Shown piece by piece: positions 16,906 through 63,312 of a stretch of DNA of 64,000 nucleotides. The notes beneath the pieces are model-generated. The model saw nothing but the letters and a program-made list of their open reading frames with translations. It searched no databases and was not told where the DNA came from. Both the position numbers and the translations under genes were made by a program. How positions within the stretch are numbered: position 1 is the stretch's first letter; each line of letters starts with the position of its first letter. Origin of the DNA: a virus; IMG/VR virus record IMGVR_UViG_3300038312_000168, positions 1-64,000 of that record; one strand, written 5' to 3'.

Positions 16906-17042
16906 TTCTCCCGGCAGGACTCGAACCTGCATTACCGGATTTATTCAGAGTGTGACAGGTGTTACCGCCCGCTTCAGGTTAAATTGTGAGTTTTACCCAC
17001 ACTCTTTCAAATTCCGGCATGATACCATTACACTACGGGAGT
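16906..17042 (-). tRNA. tRNA-Gln: tRNA-Gln(UUG) with ~66-nt intron at position 37/38
   Basis: Minus-strand cloverleaf: T arm GCAGG-UUCGAGU-CCUGC, anticodon stem CCGGA/UCCGG split by an insert (about 16941-17006) with long helix GAGUGUG/CACACUC next to 3-nt bulges; loop AUUUGAA. Acceptor 6 bp plus an A1.A72 mismatch. Confidence 0.75.
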
Positions 17043-40309: not shown

Positions 40310-40906
40310 TTATTCTGGATGATAATAACGATACAGGTAATAACGGAGGGTATTTTCCACATTGAAGCAAATATTGTCAACAGAACCATTTGCATCCAGA
40401 ATGAAATATCGATGTTTTCCCTCTTTTGCAAGTTTTATATAATTGTCCTGAATCTTACTTAAACGCTGTATTTCCTCTGTCATGTTGTTTATCTTACGCC
40501 GTTTAGCATTACGTAAGGCGAACATCGATGGATTACCGTAAAGTAAGATGGTTATATCGGGAAAGAGTGTATTACCATCGAAGAAGCGCATAATCTCATC
40601 AGTGTCGCGCGAGAGGACCACACCATAACGCGCAATGATTTCATCCAGGTAAGGATCGGTAATTACAATCTTACCCTCTTCGAGTGCAGGAGTGATGAAT
40701 GAATCAATGTGGTCATAATGATCGAGCAGCGTAAGAAGTAATTGTTTTTCAGGGTTGTCCTTATGCTTCTTAATCAAATCACGCATATCTTCAGCGAATG
40801 GTTCTGCCGTGTAAACAATATCTTCAAAGTCAGTCAGATTTTCACGTAAATAGTTAAGGACAGTGGTTTTTCCACTTCCCTCAACACCTTCAATACTTAT
40901 AATCAT
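40310..40906 (-). CDS. tmk: thymidylate (dTMP) kinase (198 aa)
   Basis: MIISIEGVEGSGKTT P-loop typical of Tmk; ATG 40906 preceded by AGGTGG (track start 40921 lies within the SD). Confidence 0.8.
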   Translation of the reverse strand: MIISIEGVEGSGKTTVLNYLRENLTDFEDIVYTAEPFAEDMRDLIKKHKDNPEKQLLLTLLDHYDHIDSFITPALEEGKIVITDPYLDEIIARYGVVLSRDTDEIMRFFDGNTLFPDITILLYGNPSMFALRNAKRRKINNMTEEIQRLSKIQDNYIKLAKEGKHRYFILDANGSVDNICFNVENTLRYYLYRYYHPE

Positions 40907-40917
40907 TTTATACCACC

Positions 40918-41553
40918 TCATAAAAAGTTGAGTGCTTCAATAGTCTCTTTTGGGAGTTTAATCTTCAATGCACCATTTTTATAATCTGTAATCAAGTCAG
41001 AAAGTTTAGGATACGCTTCAAGTAACTTCTGTGCGCGTCTATCACCCACTCCAGGCAAGGACAAGTAAATGTCATAGAGTGGATTTGTACTTGACTTAAC
41101 TTTCTTATGCTTAACACTCTCTACTTTCTTACCCTTGCCTACCATTTCACGGATCTTAAAGATTGCATGGAATAATTGAGGCGCGGTATCAAATTGAATC
41201 ATCTTTACATTATACCTTGCTGCTACAGAACAGAGGGAACCAACAGTATGTGTGGTTTTCCATTGTTTAGCGTAAGGAATAAAGTAGAGACTCTTGAAAT
41301 TACCGTGTATGAAAAGGTAAGGTTCATCAAACTGTTCAAGGTTGGTAAGTTGAGTTTCTAATCTTCCATCGCGCACCGAATTGACAAAATCAGCAACAGA
41401 TTTACGTTCAATGACAATCTTCTTCTCACCATCAATAACCCAAGCGAAATCACCCGATTCCATATATTCAAAACGGACTTCAACATTTAATGTTTTTGCA
41501 ATGCGAGCAATCTTATTTTGAACAGTTTTGGGTTCTCTTGTATCTACAATCAA
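40918..41553 (-). CDS. xpf: XPF/Mus81-type ERCC4 nuclease with C-terminal HhH2 (211 aa)
   Basis: VDTREP, GDFAWVI, IERKSVADFVNSVRDGRLETQ (ERCC4 GDxn-ERKx3D signature) and LPGVGDRRAQKLLEAY (helix-hairpin-helix); TTG start. Confidence 0.85.
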   Translation of the reverse strand: MIVDTREPKTVQNKIARIAKTLNVEVRFEYMESGDFAWVIDGEKKIVIERKSVADFVNSVRDGRLETQLTNLEQFDEPYLFIHGNFKSLYFIPYAKQWKTTHTVGSLCSVAARYNVKMIQFDTAPQLFHAIFKIREMVGKGKKVESVKHKKVKSSTNPLYDIYLSLPGVGDRRAQKLLEAYPKLSDLITDYKNGALKIKLPKETIEALNFL

Positions 41554-43708: not shown

Positions 43709-43903
43709 TTACCAACATCCATAGTCTGTTAAATCGATACATTCACCACAATTTTCACATTCCGCTTTATGAACACAACCAATTCCTGTTCCAATAATGT
43801 GTAAGTGAATCGTTAATTCATATTTATTATCATCAAAACAACGCTCATGTCGAGCGATAAACTGATTGAGTTGTGCAAGTTCATTTTCGTTTAGTTCTAA
43901 CAT
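43709..43903 (-). CDS. hypothetical Cys-rich protein (64 aa)
   Basis: ATG 43903 in TAATG overlap with RNR stop (track start is GTG); C-terminal CENCGEC..C. Confidence 0.5.
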   Translation of the reverse strand: MLELNENELAQLNQFIARHERCFDDNKYELTIHLHIIGTGIGCVHKAECENCGECIDLTDYGCW

Positions 43904-46900
43904 TATCCGCACCTACTGTATCCACACGCACAAGTCTTACAACCTTCAACCATACTTAAATGTTCACCACATTCAGGACAGATATTTGATTCAGTCTTTA
44001 TTTCTTCCTTACATGGAATAGAAATTGGTTCTGATTCTTTATCAGGAATCAGACTTTCAATTACTCGACCGATAACATCCGAGCATGATTTTCCATCACA
44101 ATTACCTTCAGAGAATTTCTTGTAAGCGACAGGACAAGTAACATTACGTAAAGTCTTGATTATATCCCAGGTAGGAACATTCCAACGCATTGAAAGAGAA
44201 ATCATCTGTCCCAATGCATCATTCATAGCGGTGCAACCACCTTTGTTGTTTATAATGCATTCATAGGGTTTACCATCTTTTTCTGCAACGGAAATGATAA
44301 GTTTACCACAACCTGAACGTCTCTTACTATTTGTAGCGGGAAGATCAGATGGGCGCTTAGGTAGGATTCTACCATCGGGGAGTGGTGTTGTAGGGGTGGA
44401 ATCTTTCTTGAGTTCCATTACAATATCATCTCTGCTACCTGTTACATAAATGGTAACTCCCTTACATCCTTTCTCATAAGCGTAAAGAATAGCACTTCTA
44501 ATATCGTCTTTAGTAGCGCCTGGAGGCATGTTAATTGTCTTACTGATTGCAGCATGACAATACTGTTGAAACGCTGCCTGCATGTCAATGTGTGACTTCC
44601 AATCGATGTCAAGAGCCGTCTTGAACACAGATTTAAACTCTTTAGGCAACCATGTAATATCTTGAATAGTCCCTGTTTCGTAAGCATGATTGATTACTTC
44701 CTGCTTCTTTTTGTCCCATTGTGAAACCTCAACATGTGATTCAATGTAATTATTCAGTTTTTCTTCAAAGACTGGATCAACCATCAGGTATCCTTTCTTT
44801 TTACCATCTACCCATGTATACCGCTTGTGAACCAGGGAATAAACAGGTTCAATACCATATGAGGTTTCAGAGAGTGTTGCAATACTTCCAGTGGGTGCTA
44901 TACATGTTGTAGTTGCATTACGTATGGGTATATCATGTAGGAACCAATCAGAACCTTCATATGCTGGAAATACACCAAGTTCTTTTGCAAGTTCTCTTGA
45001 TGTTAGAACAGACATATCATTAAGAATGCCCATAACCTTTTTTGCCTGATACAGTGCATCAGAACTATCGTAAGGAATACCCATCTTCATTAGCATGTGA
45101 TGGAATCCCATGTAACCTAATCCAATCTTACGAGTCTTTCTACTCGCTTCTGCAATCTCTTCAATAGGATATTTGTTAAGATCAATAATCTTATCAAGAA
45201 ACTCTGTTGAAAGTTCAATGGTATTTATTAAATCATTTTGCATTAATCCATTATTATTAACAAAGTTAGATAAATTTATACTGCCTAGATTACATGATTC
45301 GCCTGGTAATAGTGGTTGCTCTCCGCAGTTAGAGGCCAATATGCCGTTGAAAATGCCAGTATGGTTCTTAGGCTCGTTGAAACAGTAAACCTTGTCTACA
45401 ATTTCATTGTTCCGTTCAATAGATACAATTTTAATAAACCTTTTTGCATCTCTTTTATTAGTTGTTACAGTGGGGACTCTATATGTTTTAAACCCAAGAT
45501 CAACCAATTTTTTAACATTAGATGCAGGAATTGTAAGTCTATAACAATCAAGACAATAATATTCTTTTTGACCACCATTACCATCGGGCATTAATTTATA
45601 ATCAGATTTTTTCATCAAATTAACAGAAGTATTAATACCAAGTGTATCAAGCATATATTTTACATCCATTAAAAAATCTCTTTTAACAGATGAAATAGCG
45701 ATACTACCTTCACTTGTATTTTTACATCCATCACTGTCAACAATTCCTGCTAACCATTCTAATCTTGATTTAATTGTATATGAACAATTAGGAACAAACA
45801 ATTTTTCATAATCACCCTGTAATGTAACAAGAATTCTATCGTGATCATCACTTTGATTATAATTAACACGTTTTGCATTTAAATATTCTACTAAATCTTT
45901 TTTAATTCCATATAAATATATATACTTTATACCATTTGATTGACATTTATAACCATCACCACTAAAGAAACCATGTGTATATGCAAATTCAAGTTCTTTT
46001 TTACCCTCAATAACGGGGTAATCACACTTGATAAGTTTGTCACCTACTACTAAATCCTTTGCTTCTTTTTTAACAATTTTATTTTTATTACCTTTATAAC
46101 CATATTGTAAAACAAACTTATGATAAGGAGTACATTTTACTTTGTTACCATCACTGAATGTTACTTCCATAACCTCTTGATCGTATCCAGTAACACACGG
46201 AGTAACAACACTCCATTCAAACCCATTCCAGATAGTTGTTTCTTTATCTACACACTCATCAATGCGCTTATATCCTTCATTGGTAAGAATGAGTGTTTCA
46301 CCAACCAAACACGGATTGGTTGCTTCAATATTACCAAGATGTTTGCAAGTATTATCATCATTAATTGTATTGTAGAATAATACCCCTGGTTCACCTGTCT
46401 TGGAAATTCCATCTACAATCTTATCAAAAACTTCTTTCGCTCTGATTGTTTTGTAAACTTTACCATCGAAGTGAAGATTATACTCTTTATCATTCTTTAC
46501 AGCACTAATAAATTCATCATCAATCATTACAGAAATATTGAAGTTAGAAAGATCACCTTCAGTATTCTTACACGCAATGAACTTCTCAATATCTGGATGC
46601 CAAACAGGGAGAACACCCATATTCGCACCCCTTCTTTTAGATCCCTGAACCACAGCACCAGTAGCAGCATTAAACACTTTCATGAAAGAAATGGGGCCTG
46701 ATGCAACACCATCTGTTCCATTTACTTTGTCACCTTCAGGTCGAAGATTACCAAAGGAAAATCCTGTTCCACCTGCTGCCTTATGAATTAATGCGGCATT
46801 TTTAATTGCATCAAAAATACTTTCCATTGAATCATTTACAGGAATTACAAAACATGCAGAAAGTTGTCCTATTTCCGTTCCTGCATTCATAAGTGTAGGC

Positions 46901-47064
46901 GAATTAGGCACAAAATCTTTATTCACCATCATATCATAGTAAATCTCTCGTTCATCGTCCGTATTTCCTACATAGTCTGCAACTCTTCTACAGACATCTT
47001 CCCAGGACGATTCACCTTCACGGAAATAACGAGCAGCAAGAACTTCATTAACAATGTCACTCAT
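43903..47064 (-). CDS. nrdJ: class II (B12-dependent type) ribonucleotide reductase interrupted by an intein (1053 aa precursor)
   Basis: PNSPTLMNAG, LSACFV, GGTGFSFG.LRP, ASGPISFM, KRRGA, ...ATNP[C-intein-N]CGEQPL..ESCNLGSINL; C-terminal Zn-ribbon CPECG...CKTCACG. Confidence 0.9.
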   Translation of the reverse strand: MSDIVNEVLAARYFREGESSWEDVCRRVADYVGNTDDEREIYYDMMVNKDFVPNSPTLMNAGTEIGQLSACFVIPVNDSMESIFDAIKNAALIHKAAGGTGFSFGNLRPEGDKVNGTDGVASGPISFMKVFNAATGAVVQGSKRRGANMGVLPVWHPDIEKFIACKNTEGDLSNFNISVMIDDEFISAVKNDKEYNLHFDGKVYKTIRAKEVFDKIVDGISKTGEPGVLFYNTINDDNTCKHLGNIEATNPCLVGETLILTNEGYKRIDECVDKETTIWNGFEWSVVTPCVTGYDQEVMEVTFSDGNKVKCTPYHKFVLQYGYKGNKNKIVKKEAKDLVVGDKLIKCDYPVIEGKKELEFAYTHGFFSGDGYKCQSNGIKYIYLYGIKKDLVEYLNAKRVNYNQSDDHDRILVTLQGDYEKLFVPNCSYTIKSRLEWLAGIVDSDGCKNTSEGSIAISSVKRDFLMDVKYMLDTLGINTSVNLMKKSDYKLMPDGNGGQKEYYCLDCYRLTIPASNVKKLVDLGFKTYRVPTVTTNKRDAKRFIKIVSIERNNEIVDKVYCFNEPKNHTGIFNGILASNCGEQPLLPGESCNLGSINLSNFVNNNGLMQNDLINTIELSTEFLDKIIDLNKYPIEEIAEASRKTRKIGLGYMGFHHMLMKMGIPYDSSDALYQAKKVMGILNDMSVLTSRELAKELGVFPAYEGSDWFLHDIPIRNATTTCIAPTGSIATLSETSYGIEPVYSLVHKRYTWVDGKKKGYLMVDPVFEEKLNNYIESHVEVSQWDKKKQEVINHAYETGTIQDITWLPKEFKSVFKTALDIDWKSHIDMQAAFQQYCHAAISKTINMPPGATKDDIRSAILYAYEKGCKGVTIYVTGSRDDIVMELKKDSTPTTPLPDGRILPKRPSDLPATNSKRRSGCGKLIISVAEKDGKPYECIINNKGGCTAMNDALGQMISLSMRWNVPTWDIIKTLRNVTCPVAYKKFSEGNCDGKSCSDVIGRVIESLIPDKESEPISIPCKEEIKTESNICPECGEHLSMVEGCKTCACGYSRCG
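45328..46311 (-). mobile_element. intein (328 aa) with LAGLIDADG homing endonuclease domain in the RNR NPCGEQ active-site loop
   Basis: Begins Cys (CLVGETLIL; codon at 46309-46311), ends ...GILASN (45328-45330) followed by +1 Cys of CGEQ; two dodecapeptide motifs YTHGFFSGDGY and LEWLAGIVDSDGC. Confidence 0.9.
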
Positions 47065-47069
47065 AGTAA

Positions 47070-47423
47070 TTACCTCTTGAATAGTTTGTAAGTGTAAGCA
47101 TGTGCATTGAAGTAATCAGCACAACACTTTGCAGTCTTTGGTCCATTGAATGTTTTACAAGAGAATACATCAATATAACAACAATCTGTTTCCTCACTGA
47201 AATGTGCAGTGATGCACGATGTTTCAATAAGTTGTATTACAGAGTAACCATAGAGTTGTGGTTCAGTTCCAAACCGTTCTATAACCATTTCACCATGACG
47301 TTTCATGTCAATAAAGTTACAAAGATCAATCATCCACGCCTTGATATATTCACCATCACAAATCTTTTCATGATTGCACTCAAAAAGATTCATGTGTAAG
47401 GATAAACCAAAATCACCCTTCAA
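47070..47423 (-). CDS. pyruvoyl-type S-adenosylmethionine decarboxylase-like protein (SpeH/AdoMetDC family, ~117 aa)
   Basis: GYSVIQLIETSCITAHFSEETDCCYIDVFSCK aligns by eye with G.tgvvllaESHisiHTwPE.gyaa.DvFtCG; no ATG near 5' end; TTG 47423 sits 6 nt after GGTGGA (alternative ATG 47393). Confidence 0.55.
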   Translation of the reverse strand: MKGDFGLSLHMNLFECNHEKICDGEYIKAWMIDLCNFIDMKRHGEMVIERFGTEPQLYGYSVIQLIETSCITAHFSEETDCCYIDVFSCKTFNGPKTAKCCADYFNAHAYTYKLFKR

Positions 47424-47424
47424 G

Positions 47425-47694
47425 TTATTCCACCTTCTCAAGTCTCATTACCATTTTCTCATACTCATAATACTTATTTGTCTTTTCAATAATACGTGTC
47501 TGTGCATTTTTAATTACGGGTTCATCCATAGCCATTGCAAGAATCTGTCCCGATTCATCGCGGATTACAAATGTAGGATTACCTGAAAGAAAATGAGAGA
47601 ATGTTGCCTTAACATACTGTTCATTCTGTTCTTGTCGTTTCCGTTCTTCATGCATTGCTGCAATCTGTTTTGAATTTTGGGGTTTGTAAACCAT
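47425..47694 (-). CDS. hypothetical protein (89 aa)
   Basis: ATG 47694 with GGAG 9 nt upstream (track start is TTG). Confidence 0.5.
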   Translation of the reverse strand: MVYKPQNSKQIAAMHEERKRQEQNEQYVKATFSHFLSGNPTFVIRDESGQILAMAMDEPVIKNAQTRIIEKTNKYYEYEKMVMRLEKVE

Positions 47695-47695
47695 C

Positions 47696-48361
47696 TTAAT
47701 CAACTCCTACAAGTCTTTCAATATCATTTTCATCTCGCGTTATATAAATGTGTGGAATTAGACTTACGTGTTGATAGCGTCCAATAGGTAATCCAAGTGC
47801 ATCTGCAATGTATTTCTGAAGATGCACAAGTCCAAACGCATTTTGACCGAAGGCAGCGCACATATCGTTGCTACGGAAGGTTACATTCATGCACAACTTT
47901 CCATCTATGATTACACATTGCACATGATTTAAACAGGGACAATTCTCCATATCAAAGTGTAGAGGTGGATTCCACAGAGACATAACCGCTTGACGGGAAG
48001 TAGGATGATCTCTAAGTTCATTGATTACGTAGGCAACCTGATTGAAATGGCTATAAACAAAATCATAACATTCCTCATCACCATACATATAATCAAACAT
48101 CAAATCATGATACGTGTAATCAAAATCTGCCTTAGTTCCATTAAGAATCTGATCTGCATACTGTTCTGCAAATAGTTTACCAAAAGGTGCTCGCTCACTT
48201 ACCATTGGTTCTGTAAACGGATTATCAATTACAATGCAAGAACCATCAATTTCAAGTGTCTTTTCCCCTTTCGTTGTAATACGCCCGTAACCTTTATTGT
48301 ATATTTCCTTTACAATAAGTTCATGTGCGTGTCCAATGCAATACGTATGAATCAGTTTCAT
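47696..48361 (-). CDS. thymidylate synthase (ThyA) family enzyme, short archaeal type (221 aa); TS versus dUMP hydroxymethylase unresolved
   Basis: RQAVMSLWNP, CPCLNHVQCVI (catalytic Cys), FRSNDMCAAFGQNAFG, PHIY: the ordered ThyA-family motifs. Confidence 0.75.
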   Translation of the reverse strand: MKLIHTYCIGHAHELIVKEIYNKGYGRITTKGEKTLEIDGSCIVIDNPFTEPMVSERAPFGKLFAEQYADQILNGTKADFDYTYHDLMFDYMYGDEECYDFVYSHFNQVAYVINELRDHPTSRQAVMSLWNPPLHFDMENCPCLNHVQCVIIDGKLCMNVTFRSNDMCAAFGQNAFGLVHLQKYIADALGLPIGRYQHVSLIPHIYITRDENDIERLVGVD

Positions 48362-53175: not shown

Positions 53176-53682
53176 TTAAAAGAAGTAATCAAGTGAATTG
53201 CATTGATGTGACTTCTTCGATTGTTCAATGCGCGTTTTATCGGGCATTACGAGTGCAACCTTCTGTTTCTTAAACATCTTTTCATCCGCTTGCATTTCTG
53301 CAAGGAATGTTTTCATGTTATCTTTGTCACTGATATACATCTTAATAAGAGGTGAATACTCATCAAACTCTCTTTTACTCATATCAAGCGCACTTGATGT
53401 TTTCTCGTAATAATTATCGAGCAGTGTATCCAACTTGTCTTTCTTCACCTTATCCTTACGAATCCAGATAGGCATACAATACATCTGTTGTGCGTGTAGG
53501 AGAAGTAATCCACGAAAGATTGATGGGTTGATCTTGAATAAATATTGATTAAGTTTATCCGCTTCCTCCAGATACATTACATCCTGTGAAAAGATACGGA
53601 GAAGCATATATTCCTTTCCTACAAGATGTGAAGGGTAGATTTGCTCCTTACTGATGATACGCTTCATTAAATTGAACGGCAT
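53176..53682 (-). CDS. hypothetical protein with C-terminal PIP-like tail (168 aa)
   Basis: ORF track; extreme C-terminus ...QCNSLDYFF; overlaps upstream MTase gene by 16 nt. Confidence 0.55.
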   Translation of the reverse strand: MPFNLMKRIISKEQIYPSHLVGKEYMLLRIFSQDVMYLEEADKLNQYLFKINPSIFRGLLLLHAQQMYCMPIWIRKDKVKKDKLDTLLDNYYEKTSSALDMSKREFDEYSPLIKMYISDKDNMKTFLAEMQADEKMFKKQKVALVMPDKTRIEQSKKSHQCNSLDYFF

Positions 53683-54155
53683 TTAATACACTCCTTACTC
53701 GTTAATCCATTACGTATACGTTCACCAAACACTACAATGCAGGATGGAAATGGTGCTGCCATAGGTTTACGATGAGTAGGATTAGTAAATTTAACTCTAC
53801 CACTGATAAATCTAATCTCATCGGCAAGCATGATATATTTATGCCAATAAGAAGTATCAGTCCGGGCAGGAATGAGACAAACAACAGTAGCACCACATAA
53901 TGCCTCATTGTATGCCTTCTCTACCCATCGTGGTATTTCCTTACCGTAAGGAGGATTCATAAAGACTATATCTTTACTCCAATCTTTGTATAATCCATTT
54001 TCCTCAATAGAGTAATACTTGTAACACTTTGCATTTTGTGATGTTGCACACGGATCAAGCGTAAAATTAAATTCGTCGTTCAATGCATCGAATAAATCAC
54101 GCGGGGTTTCCCATTCCATATCCTTTGAGGAATAATGCACATCCATCTTACTCAT
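53667..54155 (-). CDS. phage Dam-type DNA N6-adenine methyltransferase (162 aa)
   Basis: EWETPRDLFDALNDEFNFTLDPCA, VFMNPPYG (NPPY), LIPARTDTSYWH, GRVKF: the small phage Dam family pattern. Confidence 0.85.
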   Translation of the reverse strand: MSKMDVHYSSKDMEWETPRDLFDALNDEFNFTLDPCATSQNAKCYKYYSIEENGLYKDWSKDIVFMNPPYGKEIPRWVEKAYNEALCGATVVCLIPARTDTSYWHKYIMLADEIRFISGRVKFTNPTHRKPMAAPFPSCIVVFGERIRNGLTSKECIKCRSI

Positions 54156-54438
54156 AGTCTACACCGCACGTTTTAGTGACAAATTCAAGGTTCTCTACCG
54201 TTTCAACAATCTCTGTATGATGCTTTAAATCGTAACCATAATTTTCAAGAAAACCTGATGCAGAACGGATAATACGTTGTTCACGTTCTGTTTCATTGTA
54301 ATCAAAGACTGCAATGAGTTTACCATTCTCATCTTTGTAGACACCATTGAAATTGTCAATGAGGAGTAAGCGTAAGGTAGAGAAACATGCATCGAGAGGG
54401 AACTTGTGAAAGTCAGAATAATTAAAAAGAAGTTTCAT
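54148..54438 (-). CDS. hypothetical protein (96 aa)
   Basis: ATG 54438 after GGTGAT (track start is GTG). Confidence 0.5.
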   Translation of the reverse strand: MKLLFNYSDFHKFPLDACFSTLRLLLIDNFNGVYKDENGKLIAVFDYNETEREQRIIRSASGFLENYGYDLKHHTEIVETVENLEFVTKTCGVDYE

Positions 54439-54443
54439 GAGTA

Positions 54444-55391
54444 TCACCAGAATGTATCCTTACCATAATCTACTTTGATATAATCAAGTATTTCGCCAAG
54501 ACCAAGTTGATTAATACAGAATTTCCATTGTGACGGATGAGTTCTCTTCATACGCTGGAATCTGTTTTCACCCTTAGTCATATGAACCCCAAACATACAG
54601 AACATACAACCCGTTCTCTGTTCTCCTGTGCAGATTAATTCACCATTCTTTTCAATAATATCACCATAAATCTTACTATATGGAATATTATTATCTTTCA
54701 GATAATGTAACACATCTTGTTCTAACCAGAATCCCATTGGTGTTGATTTTGGTGATTTAAGATCATATCCATTACAACCCTGTCTTAAATATGTCTGCAT
54801 CCTCATTCTACTTTCAGCAGCAATTTCACCTGTAAGTGGCACTCGTCCTGTTTCTTTAACATATTTCTTCATTGGCCCCTTCTTCATAACATCACAACAT
54901 TTATCAGATATTTTAAATGGTGCTTCAACTAGGTATCTCCATTTCTTAGAAAGAACCATTGAAGGACAATATTCACCCTTTTGATTCATACCTGTTAAAC
55001 GTAAGTTTCTTGATGCTACATTTTTTTCAGTTGGATTCTGTAAATCATTAATATAACGTGAAATACGCTTACTAATTACTGGATACCCATAAGTTTCAAT
55101 AACTTTCTTAAAATTCATTTCGGGCTTGAGCCATACAACATTATCAATAGACTTAACAAAATCTCTGATCTCTGGATATTCTAATCCAGTATCAACAAAT
55201 ACAGCAGGCACATTAGGATATTGACTTCTTACAATGTCTAAAAGAACGGTGGAATCTTTACCACCACTGAATGCAACATAAACATCACCATAATAGTGAT
55301 TATACCATTCCCTAATTCTTATTTCTGTTTTTCTAATTTTAAGTTCTAAGGGTAATGATTGCATCTGTTGTAATTCATACATCTCTAGCAT
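54444..55391 (-). CDS. PAPS-reductase-family PP-loop protein with C-terminal Cys cluster (315 aa)
   Basis: VAFSGGKDSTVLLDIV (PP-loop SGGxDS), VFVDTGLEYPEIRDF, C-terminal CTGEQRTGCMFCMFG. Confidence 0.8.
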   Translation of the reverse strand: MLEMYELQQMQSLPLELKIRKTEIRIREWYNHYYGDVYVAFSGGKDSTVLLDIVRSQYPNVPAVFVDTGLEYPEIRDFVKSIDNVVWLKPEMNFKKVIETYGYPVISKRISRYINDLQNPTEKNVASRNLRLTGMNQKGEYCPSMVLSKKWRYLVEAPFKISDKCCDVMKKGPMKKYVKETGRVPLTGEIAAESRMRMQTYLRQGCNGYDLKSPKSTPMGFWLEQDVLHYLKDNNIPYSKIYGDIIEKNGELICTGEQRTGCMFCMFGVHMTKGENRFQRMKRTHPSQWKFCINQLGLGEILDYIKVDYGKDTFW

Positions 55392-55945
55392 TATAACACC
55401 TTAGTCAAATGATACCGTGAAAGTGTTGCACCTGTCTGATGCTTGTATTTGGAAGTAGATTTCTCATTATATCCTACCCTACACGTTTCACCCTCAAAAA
55501 ATACTAACTGTGCAATCGGCATACCATTGTAAAGACGAATAGGACGATTATTTACATTGAAGAGTTCAAACGTAAGAGTTCCACCGAAACCTGCATCAAT
55601 CCAACCTCCAGTCTGATGAATGGTAAGACCCAGGCGAGCAAGAGATGATTTCCCTTCACATGCTGCTGCAATGTTTTTAGGTAAGGTAATAGTCTCTTGT
55701 GAAACAGCAAGCACAAACATTCCAGGTTGAATTGTAAAGGTATCTGCTTCAACTACTTCATGTCCGTAGAGAATTGTGTTGCGGTCATACGGATCAATCA
55801 TCTGCCCGTTGTTAATGTAATATTTAAACTGATTTGAGAGGTGTAAGTCATATGAATTGGGGTTTATACTCTCTTCATTGAAAGGGGTAATAATCAGGTT
55901 TCCATAGTCAATACACTGTTTAATCTGATAGTCTACCAGAATCAT
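55391..55945 (-). CDS. dcd: dCTP deaminase/dUTPase-fold enzyme (184 aa)
   Basis: INPNSYDLHL, EGKSSLARLGL, HQTGGWIDAGFGGTLTFELFN, PIAQLVF: Dcd family pattern. Confidence 0.88.
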   Translation of the reverse strand: MILVDYQIKQCIDYGNLIITPFNEESINPNSYDLHLSNQFKYYINNGQMIDPYDRNTILYGHEVVEADTFTIQPGMFVLAVSQETITLPKNIAAACEGKSSLARLGLTIHQTGGWIDAGFGGTLTFELFNVNNRPIRLYNGMPIAQLVFFEGETCRVGYNEKSTSKYKHQTGATLSRYHLTKVL

Positions 55946-61628: not shown

Positions 61629-62519
61629 TTAAATTCCTCTTACATAAGAATAATCTTCAAATAATAATTCATCGGGCAAAACCCACTGTTGCCTAAATGT
61701 ATTCATTCTCTGTAATTCCTGATTAATAACAGTGGGTGTGATTGCGCTACTAGTGTAAGAACGCATGTTTCCATCATAAAGGGTAGAGAAATTACGATTA
61801 TCATACATCATGCCTGTATTCCTTACTGTGTTCCCCTGAAGTGCGATTAATCGTGTCCTGCACCTATAATGAAGTGGTGGACGATAGTATTGTGCTACAC
61901 TTGCAGGAAAAATAGAACCGTGTAACATGCGGCATATATCTGATGTTCTATGATCAATTACTGCCTGGAACTGAAAATAATTTGTCCCATTATCAATATA
62001 TGTCTGCGTTGTTGCATAATTGTAAATATCATTTACAAGCGTCCTTGCAACAATTCCTGTGCGATGTGCAAATGAATCATTGTAAACATTGAGTAATCGC
62101 TGTTGAACCTGATGCACAGTCATTTTTGCAATTTCATCTATCGTGTAAGTGGCATAGAAACGATTAGAAACATCGCGCATGATATTCTTTCCACTTGACC
62201 AAAAGAGCACAGCAATAAGATATTCTATCAATGCGATATCACGATACTCATCAACTACATCTTCTGCTGCATACACTTGATAATCGCTCTTTTCTACCTC
62301 TGTTATACCAAGTGTAAGGACATCATAAATATTATTGGAAACTTTAACACGCGAAACAGGACGGTTCAACTCTGTAATCAATGCACGTTCAAGTGCATCA
62401 TTGATTTGATACTTGTTTGGAATACTTGTAATAGAACGGGTAAAAAAGGTATTCAGGGTTCTACTCATACGAGTTTCTTGCTGAATTACTTTTCTTTCGT
62501 TGTAATAACTTAAAACCAT
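61629..62519 (-). CDS. minor head morphogenesis protein, Mu F/SPP1 gp7 family (296 aa)
   Basis: FQAVIDHRTSDICRMLHGSIFP....YRPPLHYRCRTRL matches the family signature (D.rT...C..l.G......pP.H..CRC). Confidence 0.8.
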   Translation of the reverse strand: MVLSYYNERKVIQQETRMSRTLNTFFTRSITSIPNKYQINDALERALITELNRPVSRVKVSNNIYDVLTLGITEVEKSDYQVYAAEDVVDEYRDIALIEYLIAVLFWSSGKNIMRDVSNRFYATYTIDEIAKMTVHQVQQRLLNVYNDSFAHRTGIVARTLVNDIYNYATTQTYIDNGTNYFQFQAVIDHRTSDICRMLHGSIFPASVAQYYRPPLHYRCRTRLIALQGNTVRNTGMMYDNRNFSTLYDGNMRSYTSSAITPTVINQELQRMNTFRQQWVLPDELLFEDYSYVRGI

Positions 62520-63262
62520 GTTTCTAATCCTTGTTTACTCTCTTGAATTACAACGGGTTTATGATTCTTAATCCTTTCAAGAATAATATCATAATACCCT
62601 TTATCTAATTCAAATCCAATGTAATTCCTATTTGTGTTCATACAAGCGATTGCAGTAGTACCACTACCCATACAATTATCTAAAACAGTATCACCTTCAT
62701 TTGTATAAGTTTTAATAAGATATTCAAATAATTCAACAGGTTTTTGGGTTGGATGAATAGTTTTACCAACACTTTTAAATTCTAAAATTGAACGTGGATA
62801 ATTAGTTTTTTCTTGAAAATTAACCTTACCACTGTCTCCATAACAATTACCGTTATTACCACGTTTAACAACCTTATTAAAATCAATTACATTTTGTGGA
62901 TTATATGTTGGTTGTTTTTGATAAAATACTAATATTTCTTCATGATTTTTCATAGGCATTCTTTTTGCATTCAAATGACCTGTTGCTGATGTTTTTTTCC
63001 AAACCCATGAATATTTTAACATTTTAATATTGGATGCGCCCAACAATGAAGTAAATGGTTGACTTCCTGTAAGAACAATAGCACCATTATCTTTTATAAT
63101 TCTTTTATATTGTTCCCACAATAAATCAAGGGGTATAACACTATCCCACTTGTTTTGAGTAGTCCCATAAGGAAGATCGCAAAGAATCATATCAACTGAC
63201 TTATCTTCAATCCGATTCATCCCTTCTAAACAATCCTCATTATAAACAACATTCAACTCCAT
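62510..63262 (-). CDS. beta-class N6A/N4C DNA methyltransferase (250 aa)
   Basis: Motif IV CDLPYG precedes HPTQKP and motif I NCMGSGTT (beta permutation, ParB-less N4/N6 MTase family); ATG 63262 (track start is GTG). Confidence 0.88.
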   Translation of the reverse strand: MELNVVYNEDCLEGMNRIEDKSVDMILCDLPYGTTQNKWDSVIPLDLLWEQYKRIIKDNGAIVLTGSQPFTSLLGASNIKMLKYSWVWKKTSATGHLNAKRMPMKNHEEILVFYQKQPTYNPQNVIDFNKVVKRGNNGNCYGDSGKVNFQEKTNYPRSILEFKSVGKTIHPTQKPVELFEYLIKTYTNEGDTVLDNCMGSGTTAIACMNTNRNYIGFELDKGYYDIILERIKNHKPVVIQESKQGLETWF

Positions 63263-63312
63263 GTATATCACTATTTTATTTCCTGTAACAACATTAAAAA
63301 GGTTGTTATATG

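Follow-up and report, generated by a model that had tools for sequence, protein, structure and literature searches.

A SpeDC-type pyruvoyl decarboxylase gene, predicted to supply putrescine, in the nucleotide-metabolism block of a probable archaeal virus

The minus-strand gene at positions 47070-47423 of the window (the whole 64,000-nt stretch analysed here, positions 1 to 64,000 of IMG/VR record IMGVR_UViG_3300038312_000168) would encode a class 1b AdoMetDC-fold proenzyme of the SpeDC clade, that is, a self-cleaving ornithine decarboxylase for putrescine supply during infection. We assign this reading a probability of about 80%. The family and fold of the 117-AA product, its catalytic residues and its placement in the SpeDC clade are described below, together with the conservation of the gene under purifying selection in related viruses. 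An earlier note on this DNA, made from the letters alone, had recognised an AdoMetDC/SpeH homologue with an unusual processing site and had suspected a switch of substrate.

Results

Gene call, start codon and neighbouring genes

The source record is complete, with 69,364 bp and direct terminal repeats, and the virus is a tailed one with a genome of 69 kb. The open reading frame enclosing the gene spans 47070-47441 on the minus strand; the TTG at 47423, the end position given in the earlier note, was taken as working start, giving a product of 117 AA and a TAA stop at 47072-47070. This TTG is almost certainly the real start, because a Shine-Dalgarno-like AAGGTGG (47430-47436, minus strand) is located 6 nt 5′ of it, within the last part of the upstream gene, whose TAA stop is at 47427-47425, L084, a related contig, carries an ATG at exactly the equivalent codon, and database homologues are 117 AA long with their first residue at this position. 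The GAGAAGGT-G stretch around the ribosome-binding site is kept in the related IMG/VR contigs L082-L084. A longer version starting with TTG at 47441 was rejected, as it runs into the upstream gene, is not supported by homologues and disagrees with the start of L084; the plus-strand open reading frame 47100-47399 was dismissed as a shadow of the conserved minus-strand gene. The earlier remark that no ATG lies nearby holds for the start codon: the sole in-frame ATG is codon 11, and a start there would leave out Gly6, which is invariant, and some of the first strand.

The gene had been placed between the ribonucleotide reductase (RNR) gene and a ThyA-like gene. The RNR gene (43903-47064) does flank it, but on the other side the immediate neighbour is a gene for a 92-AA protein (47425-47703, minus strand), with the ThyA-like gene (47696-48361, minus strand) beyond. 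The stop codon of the 92-AA gene ends 1 nt before the SpeDC start and the two genes may be co-translated. Its product gave no match in Pfam, PHROG or NCBIfam, and it is found with 71-88% identity at the same position beside SpeDC in L082-L084.

These three contigs share with the window the gene order PolB-(RNA ligase)-orf142-HAD/kinase-ThyA-orf92-SpeDC-RNR, and the position of SpeDC among the RNR, ThyA-like and HAD-kinase genes is kept in four related viruses. SpeDC identity across L082-L084 is 79-97%. Judged from pairwise dN/dS values of 0.07-0.26 against these contigs, the gene is under purifying selection in the related viruses. The block also encodes a class II RNR with an intein, PolB, a clamp loader and two DNA methyltransferases. 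The RNR (B12-dependent, minus strand) is split by this intein, whose N-terminal splicing region (TIGR01445) covers residues 252-318; the best RNR alignments span only about 500 residues in L082 and L083 and the full length in L084.

Family, fold and catalytic residues

The protein matched the Pfam family PF02675 (AdoMet_dc; cut-off 25 bits) with a score of 64.2 bits and an E value of 1.7e-17 over positions 3-106 of the 107-position profile, and PHROG 3125 with an E value of 7e-16. On its profile score the AdoMet_dc match is far above chance. An AF2 model of the 117-AA protein, with 78 homologues as input, reached a pLDDT of 96.4 and a pTM of 0.88. A Foldseek search with this model retrieved 1VR7, 1TLU and 1TMI at a TM score of 0.85 and 2III at 0.77. 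Superposed on the AdoMetDC proenzymes of Thermotoga maritima and Aquifex aeolicus, the model gave TM scores of 0.85 and 0.77, respectively, with an rmsd of 1.7-2.7 Å. As modelled, the protein has the αβ-sandwich fold of prokaryotic AdoMetDC.

A search of the PDB with the single sequence returned no match, so a profile search was needed. The resulting profile-to-PDB alignment sets Thr68-Ser69 (117-AA numbering) opposite Glu62-Ser63 of the T. maritima enzyme, His74 opposite His68, and Cys89 opposite Cys83. In the Thermotoga enzyme S63, H68 and C83 are required for self-processing and catalysis (PMC10407285). The catalytic core Gln64-Cys89 (47157-47234, minus strand) comprises Q64, E67, T68, S69, H74, F75, Y83, D85 and C89. 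The codons ACA-TCG for Thr68-Ser69 (47217-47222, minus strand) form the predicted serinolysis site, with cleavage predicted between T68 and S69 and S69 as the predicted pyruvoyl precursor. The claim of an AdoMetDC/SpeH-fold pyruvoyl enzyme is thus borne out by the PF02675 profile, the AF2 fold and the catalytic residues, and the alignment with the family, which had been proposed for checking by profile methods, stands on both the Pfam and the PDB profile matches. The Thr in place of Glu before the pyruvoyl Ser, seen earlier by eye, was recovered in the profile alignment, and the Cys that replaces His right after this Ser is present in the sequence.

S69, H74 and C89 are invariant in the 78 homologues, and the core residues Q, L, I, E, T, S, H, D, S and C are invariant in alignments of both 34 and 78 sequences. 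In the latter alignment the Q64 and T68 columns do not vary, that of F75 is almost constant, and Y83 is the residue of most sequences. The window protein retains all 15 family-invariant residues, the Ser, His and Cys among them. Both LIETSCITAHFSEE and DVFSCK were found in it, and its core reads QLIETSCITAHFSEETDCCYIDVFSC, carrying Q64, T68, F75 and Y83. At the place of the canonical HTWPE the protein has HFSEE and therefore lacks the Pro that is completely conserved among bona fide AdoMetDCs (PMC10407285). The protein is also unusually rich in Cys.

SpeDC signature

SpeDC proteins are AdoMetDC homologues that act as pyruvoyl-dependent L-ornithine decarboxylases; first found in phages, they are defined in two studies (Li et al., PNAS 2023, PMC9992855; JBC 2023, PMC10407285). 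Many phage AdoMetDC homologues yield no decarboxylated S-adenosylmethionine (dcSAM) and decarboxylate L-ornithine or, in a few cases, L-arginine (PMC9992855), and SpeDC is widespread among bacteria and archaea (PMC10407285). Four conserved residues of the central region, Gln, Thr, Phe and Tyr, serve as diagnostic marks of SpeDC (PMC10407285, section 7, Fig. 8), within the pattern Q-x-x-E-T-S...H-F...Y-x-D-x-F-S-C. The motif QLIETS...GHF...Y-x-D-x-FS, marked 'Pyruvoyl', appears in the ornithine decarboxylase (ODC) domains of two fusion proteins in Fig. S5 of PMC10407285. In the Desulfotignum SpeD1SpeD2 fusion, exchange of the Ser of ...IETS... (S229A) abolished ODC activity and left AdoMetDC activity intact (PMC10407285).

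The window protein carries all four diagnostic residues (Q64, T68, F75 and Y83). The suspected substrate switch was right in kind. The Thr-Ser site is real, but it is not novel: it is the published hallmark of the SpeDC ornithine decarboxylase clade (PMC10407285, PMC9992855). Assayed SpeDC enzymes include the freshwater phage proteins LBP and UCP02-04 and those of Methanospirillum hungatei (SpeD2), Methanolacinia, Methanogenium and Anaerolinea thermophila (PMC9992855; PMC10407285), and all assayed archaeal and bacterial proteins with the four-residue signature use ornithine only (PMC10407285). The clade is not functionally pure, as three phage proteins lie in or beside it: UCP01 acts on ornithine and arginine, the Pelagiphage HTVC201P protein groups with SpeDC and is an arginine decarboxylase, and the Sinorhizobium phage phiN3 homologue is a bona fide AdoMetDC that restores spermidine in E. 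coli (PMC9992855). The phiN3 protein reads QDS rather than ETS, so the diagnostic Thr is absent from it.

Clade placement and relatives

A maximum-likelihood tree was built from 91 rows, namely 68 ETS-type sequences and 23 others, the latter drawn from the same loci and from two phages. The window protein nests in the ETS/SpeDC-type clade, and 21 of the 23 canonical or non-ETS SpeD rows form a separate clade (support 99/97). The remaining two are placed with the ETS sequences: phiN3 has a long branch within an early-branching viral ETS group, and speH_1 of a Microcystis phage was just outside the ETS clade in a quick tree. The window protein and those of L082-L084 form one clade (100/100), nested among rows of Methanomassiliicoccales together with a MAG labelled Methanomicrobia and three MAG contigs labelled as bacterial (99/90, 100/99). 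Methanomicrobiaceae and Methanospirillaceae rows branch near the viral clade and the Anaerolinea row further out, all inside the ETS clade. The protein therefore groups with lineages of assayed ODCs, apart from canonical SpeD, with membership in SpeDC judged from the published motif, one alignment in a supplement and, in place of the assayed accessions themselves, proxy sequences of matching species or family.

The stem of the viral clade measures 0.92 substitutions per site, long enough that specificity could have drifted along it; its length suggests an old capture. The nearest relatives, which are Methanomassiliicoccales proteins (about 50% identity), have an extra N-terminal stretch of ~24 AA, which is absent from the viral protein. 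In the genome of Anaerolinea thermophila a canonical homologue (LLAESH...HAWPE) and an ETS-type one lie side by side; identity of the window protein is 44% to the ETS-type paralogue (E 3e-36) versus 24% to the canonical SpeD (E 7e-4). On TIGR03330, the equivalog of bona fide AdoMetDC, the window protein scored 33.8 bits, below the cut-off of 75.65.

Among cultured or deposited phage genomes, tblastn gave 10 distant matches only, at no more than 30% identity, and close relatives were found in metagenomic collections only. The 90%-identity cluster of the viral protein has 94 members from public metagenomes. Genes of the QLIETS/DVFSC type occur on more than 580 IMG/VR contigs and in more than 570 species genomes among the matches listed. 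The closest cellular relatives are labelled 'S-adenosylmethionine decarboxylase' in public records. SpeDC genes from three bins named Ruminococcus sp., Bacteroides ovatus and Prevotella hominis (L002, L003 and L006) group with Methanomethylophilaceae, with tree end branches of 0.009-0.04 and a G+C content of about 61%; these are probably archaeal contigs mis-binned in the respective MAGs.

Host

The virus is probably archaeal, as suggested by the SpeDC tree, the methanogen-type ThyA, an RFC-like clamp loader, XPF/ERCC4 domains and an intron-bearing tRNA. The latter is the third tRNA (16906-17042, minus strand), beside tRNA-Trp and tRNA-Leu, in which ARAGORN in intron mode places a 66-nt intron in the anticodon loop at position 34-35, with an anticodon call ('tta') that depends on the intron placement. 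Such a short intron fits archaeal tRNA splicing and hence an archaeal host.

A match to the viral ThyA, at 46%, was found in Methanoculleus but in none of three Methanomassiliicoccales genomes, and the G+C content is 36% for the virus vs. 47-66% for the archaeal loci; given this match pattern and G+C gap, we name no host. The viral genes seem to be of mixed archaeal origins. With 10 occurrences vs. 8.3 expected, the methanogen box-A motif TTTATATA shows no enrichment across the window and offers no guide to the host.

Polyamine pathway context

No spermidine synthase (PF01564) was found in the complete virus record or in the three Methanomassiliicoccales genomes (G003, G004 and G005, the genomes behind loci L004, L010 and L025), which hold the cellular homologues closest to the window protein. 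A SpeD homologue without SpeE is the anomaly by which Li et al. predicted neofunctionalisation, and SpeDC without a spermidine synthase partner is what we see in the virus and in these three genomes. The complete virus record also holds no second PF02675 member, deoxyhypusine synthase, arginase-fold protein or PLP-dependent ornithine/arginine decarboxylase. In each of G003-G005 the SpeDC-type gene is the sole PF02675 member, no canonical AdoMetDC being found there, and each genome carries a deoxyhypusine synthase, an arginase/agmatinase-fold gene and one PLP Orn/DAP-decarboxylase-fold gene. These genomes thus keep deoxyhypusine synthase (aIF5A modification) without spermidine synthase, AdoMetDC or carboxyspermidine dehydrogenase. 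A route from putrescine to spermidine via the last of these enzymes was considered and dropped, as PF16653 was found neither in the virus nor in Methanoculleus or the three Methanomassiliicoccales genomes. No polyamine genes lie near SpeDC at the Methanomassiliicoccales loci L004 and L025, where the neighbours are DUF362/ferredoxin, FMN reductase, AMP-binding and ABC-transporter genes, so these neighbourhoods give no clue to the pathway.

A canonical SpeD gene shares the locus with an ETS-type gene in 16 of 80 other viral loci (L086-L141). In 15 of them the ETS-type gene lies about 360-500 bp downstream of SpeD on the same strand; at L086 it is located about 4 kb away on the opposite strand. 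Three Anaerolineaceae loci (L037, L045 and L072) likewise combine an ES-type SpeD with an ETS-type SpeDC. From their arrangement, the pairs in many viruses look like a two-gene cassette of AdoMetDC plus ODC, and we take such shared loci as a polyamine-pathway setting.

Discussion

Proposed activity and role

Self-cleavage, specificity for ornithine and a physiological role are predicted for the window protein by homology. The 117-AA chain would cleave itself between Thr68 and Ser69 by serinolysis into a β chain (residues 1-68) and an α chain (residues 69-117) with an N-terminal pyruvoyl group derived from Ser69, and His74 and Cys89 would aid both processing and catalysis. The mature enzyme would form a Schiff base with L-ornithine and decarboxylate it to putrescine. 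The gene was probably acquired by the virus from a Methanomassiliicoccales-like archaeon, and its expression alongside the viral replication and nucleotide genes would raise putrescine during infection. Putrescine could serve in charge neutralisation and packaging of DNA or in translation, or it could feed into polyamine steps of the host. Polyamine supply was among the uses that the earlier note had considered, and of these it is the one that fits.

Relation to known enzymes

The window protein resembles the known SpeDC enzymes in length (117 AA vs. 117-122 AA in the assayed phage enzymes), in QLIETS...HF...Y-x-DVFSC with the four diagnostic residues, in the Ser/His/Cys set, in its position in the tree and in the lack of a SpeE partner. 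It differs in that its gene lies in a nucleotide-metabolism block and not beside polyamine genes, and in that it comes from a 69-kb tailed, probably archaeal virus, sits on a long branch and is Cys-rich, with an activity that is predicted. With the class 1b SpeD/SpeH enzymes (T. maritima TM0655, 1TLU/1VR7; Aquifex 2III) it shares the fold (TM 0.85, rmsd 1.7 Å), the positions of the pyruvoyl Ser and the catalytic His and Cys, and the predicted self-processing chemistry. Yet identity to them is about 21%, the Ser follows a Thr and not a Glu, HFSEE stands in place of HTWPE, the score is under the equivalog cut-off and the predicted substrate is a different one. The SpeDA arginine decarboxylases, crenarchaeal and other (Giles & Graham 2008; PMC10407285), are a parallel in that the substrate was switched within the AdoMetDC fold. 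Unlike the window protein, they are close to canonical SpeD, with an E-S site and HTW-x-E without the Pro, and they have no Gln/Thr/Phe/Tyr signature.

The gene represents neither a new enzyme class nor a new processing chemistry. The fresh point is a modest one, a SpeDC in a probable archaeal virus that groups with Methanomassiliicoccales enzymes. With it, the virus-encoded polyamine enzymes described in recent work gain a probable case from an archaeal virus; two archaeal-virus surveys make no mention of polyamine genes. The gene also suggests flow of SpeDC genes between Methanomassiliicoccales-like archaea and their viruses. QLIETS proteins now labelled 'S-adenosylmethionine decarboxylase', including those of gut Methanomethylophilaceae, are probably ornithine decarboxylases, and relabelling them would alter the reconstruction of polyamine metabolism in these methanogens, which have no spermidine synthase.

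Alternative explanations

If it were a pyruvoyl-dependent decarboxylase of arginine, or of both ornithine and arginine, the enzyme would make agmatine, which the arginase/agmatinase-fold gene of the Methanomassiliicoccales genomes checked could use; UCP01, which takes both substrates, and the arginine-specific HTVC201P protein, which groups with SpeDC, are precedents (PMC9992855, PMC10407285). We consider this unlikely, since all four ODC-diagnostic residues are present, assayed archaeal and bacterial proteins with this signature accept ornithine only, and the nearest characterised lineages in the tree are ornithine-specific. It is still harder to see the protein as a genuine AdoMetDC that makes dcSAM for spermidine synthesis, even though fold and catalytic triad are shared, its closest cellular relatives bear this annotation, and the divergent phiN3 homologue does restore spermidine in E. 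coli. The score on TIGR03330 is less than half of the cut-off (33.8 vs. 75.65 bits), the protein has a Thr-Ser instead of a Glu-Ser site and HFSEE instead of HTWPE with its conserved Pro and its Trp, phiN3 itself is without the diagnostic Thr, and spermidine synthase is missing from the virus and from the three Methanomassiliicoccales genomes; the dcSAM supply that had been suggested is therefore very improbable. The slightest probability of all goes to a catalytically dead or non-processing remnant with some other role, for example a structural or regulatory one. Degraded SpeDC domains are known in some fusion proteins (Victivallis), but the window protein keeps 15 of 15 family-invariant residues, including Ser, His and Cys, is under strongly purifying selection (dN/dS 0.07-0.26) and gives a compact, confident AF2 model.

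The place of the gene among RNR, ThyA-like and HAD-kinase genes, kept in four related viruses, could also speak for hypermodification of the viral DNA. The known pathways for thymidine hypermodification combine a ThyA-like hydroxymethylase with a P-loop 5-hmdU DNA kinase, an amino-acid:DNA transferase and amino-acid-tailoring enzymes. Here, the decarboxylase would act with the neighbouring ThyA-like enzyme and the HAD-kinase fusion protein, either by providing putrescine for a base like α-putrescinylthymine or by decarboxylating a DNA-linked amino acid. If true, such a base in an archaeal virus would explain why a decarboxylase is locked into an RNR/ThyA/HAD-kinase block in four viruses. However, against TIGR03283, the equivalog of methanogen-type ThyA, the viral ThyA reached 167.6 bits, a little short of the cut-off of 174.55, and the virus encodes a thymidylate kinase (40310-40921) and a dCTP deaminase (55391-55945), which together with ThyA look like an ordinary dTTP route in a genome of 36% G+C. 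A search with Pfam and/or PHROGs of the 25 proteins of at least 90 AA encoded at 39-64 kb revealed no thymine pyrophosphorylase-type transferase or other hypermodification enzyme, several of the open reading frames being left with no assignment, and every family-invariant residue of the decarboxylases of free ornithine is kept. The nucleobase-modification use raised in the earlier note thus finds no support in this region, and we hold it to be highly unlikely.

Other genes of the region include one for a PAPS-reductase-like protein (54444-55391, minus strand; PF01507; PHROG 424, E 4e-53). A 99-AA open reading frame (54148-54447) separates it from a gene for a Dam-type N6-adenine methyltransferase (53667-54155, minus strand), and a second N6/N4 methylase is encoded at 62510-63271.
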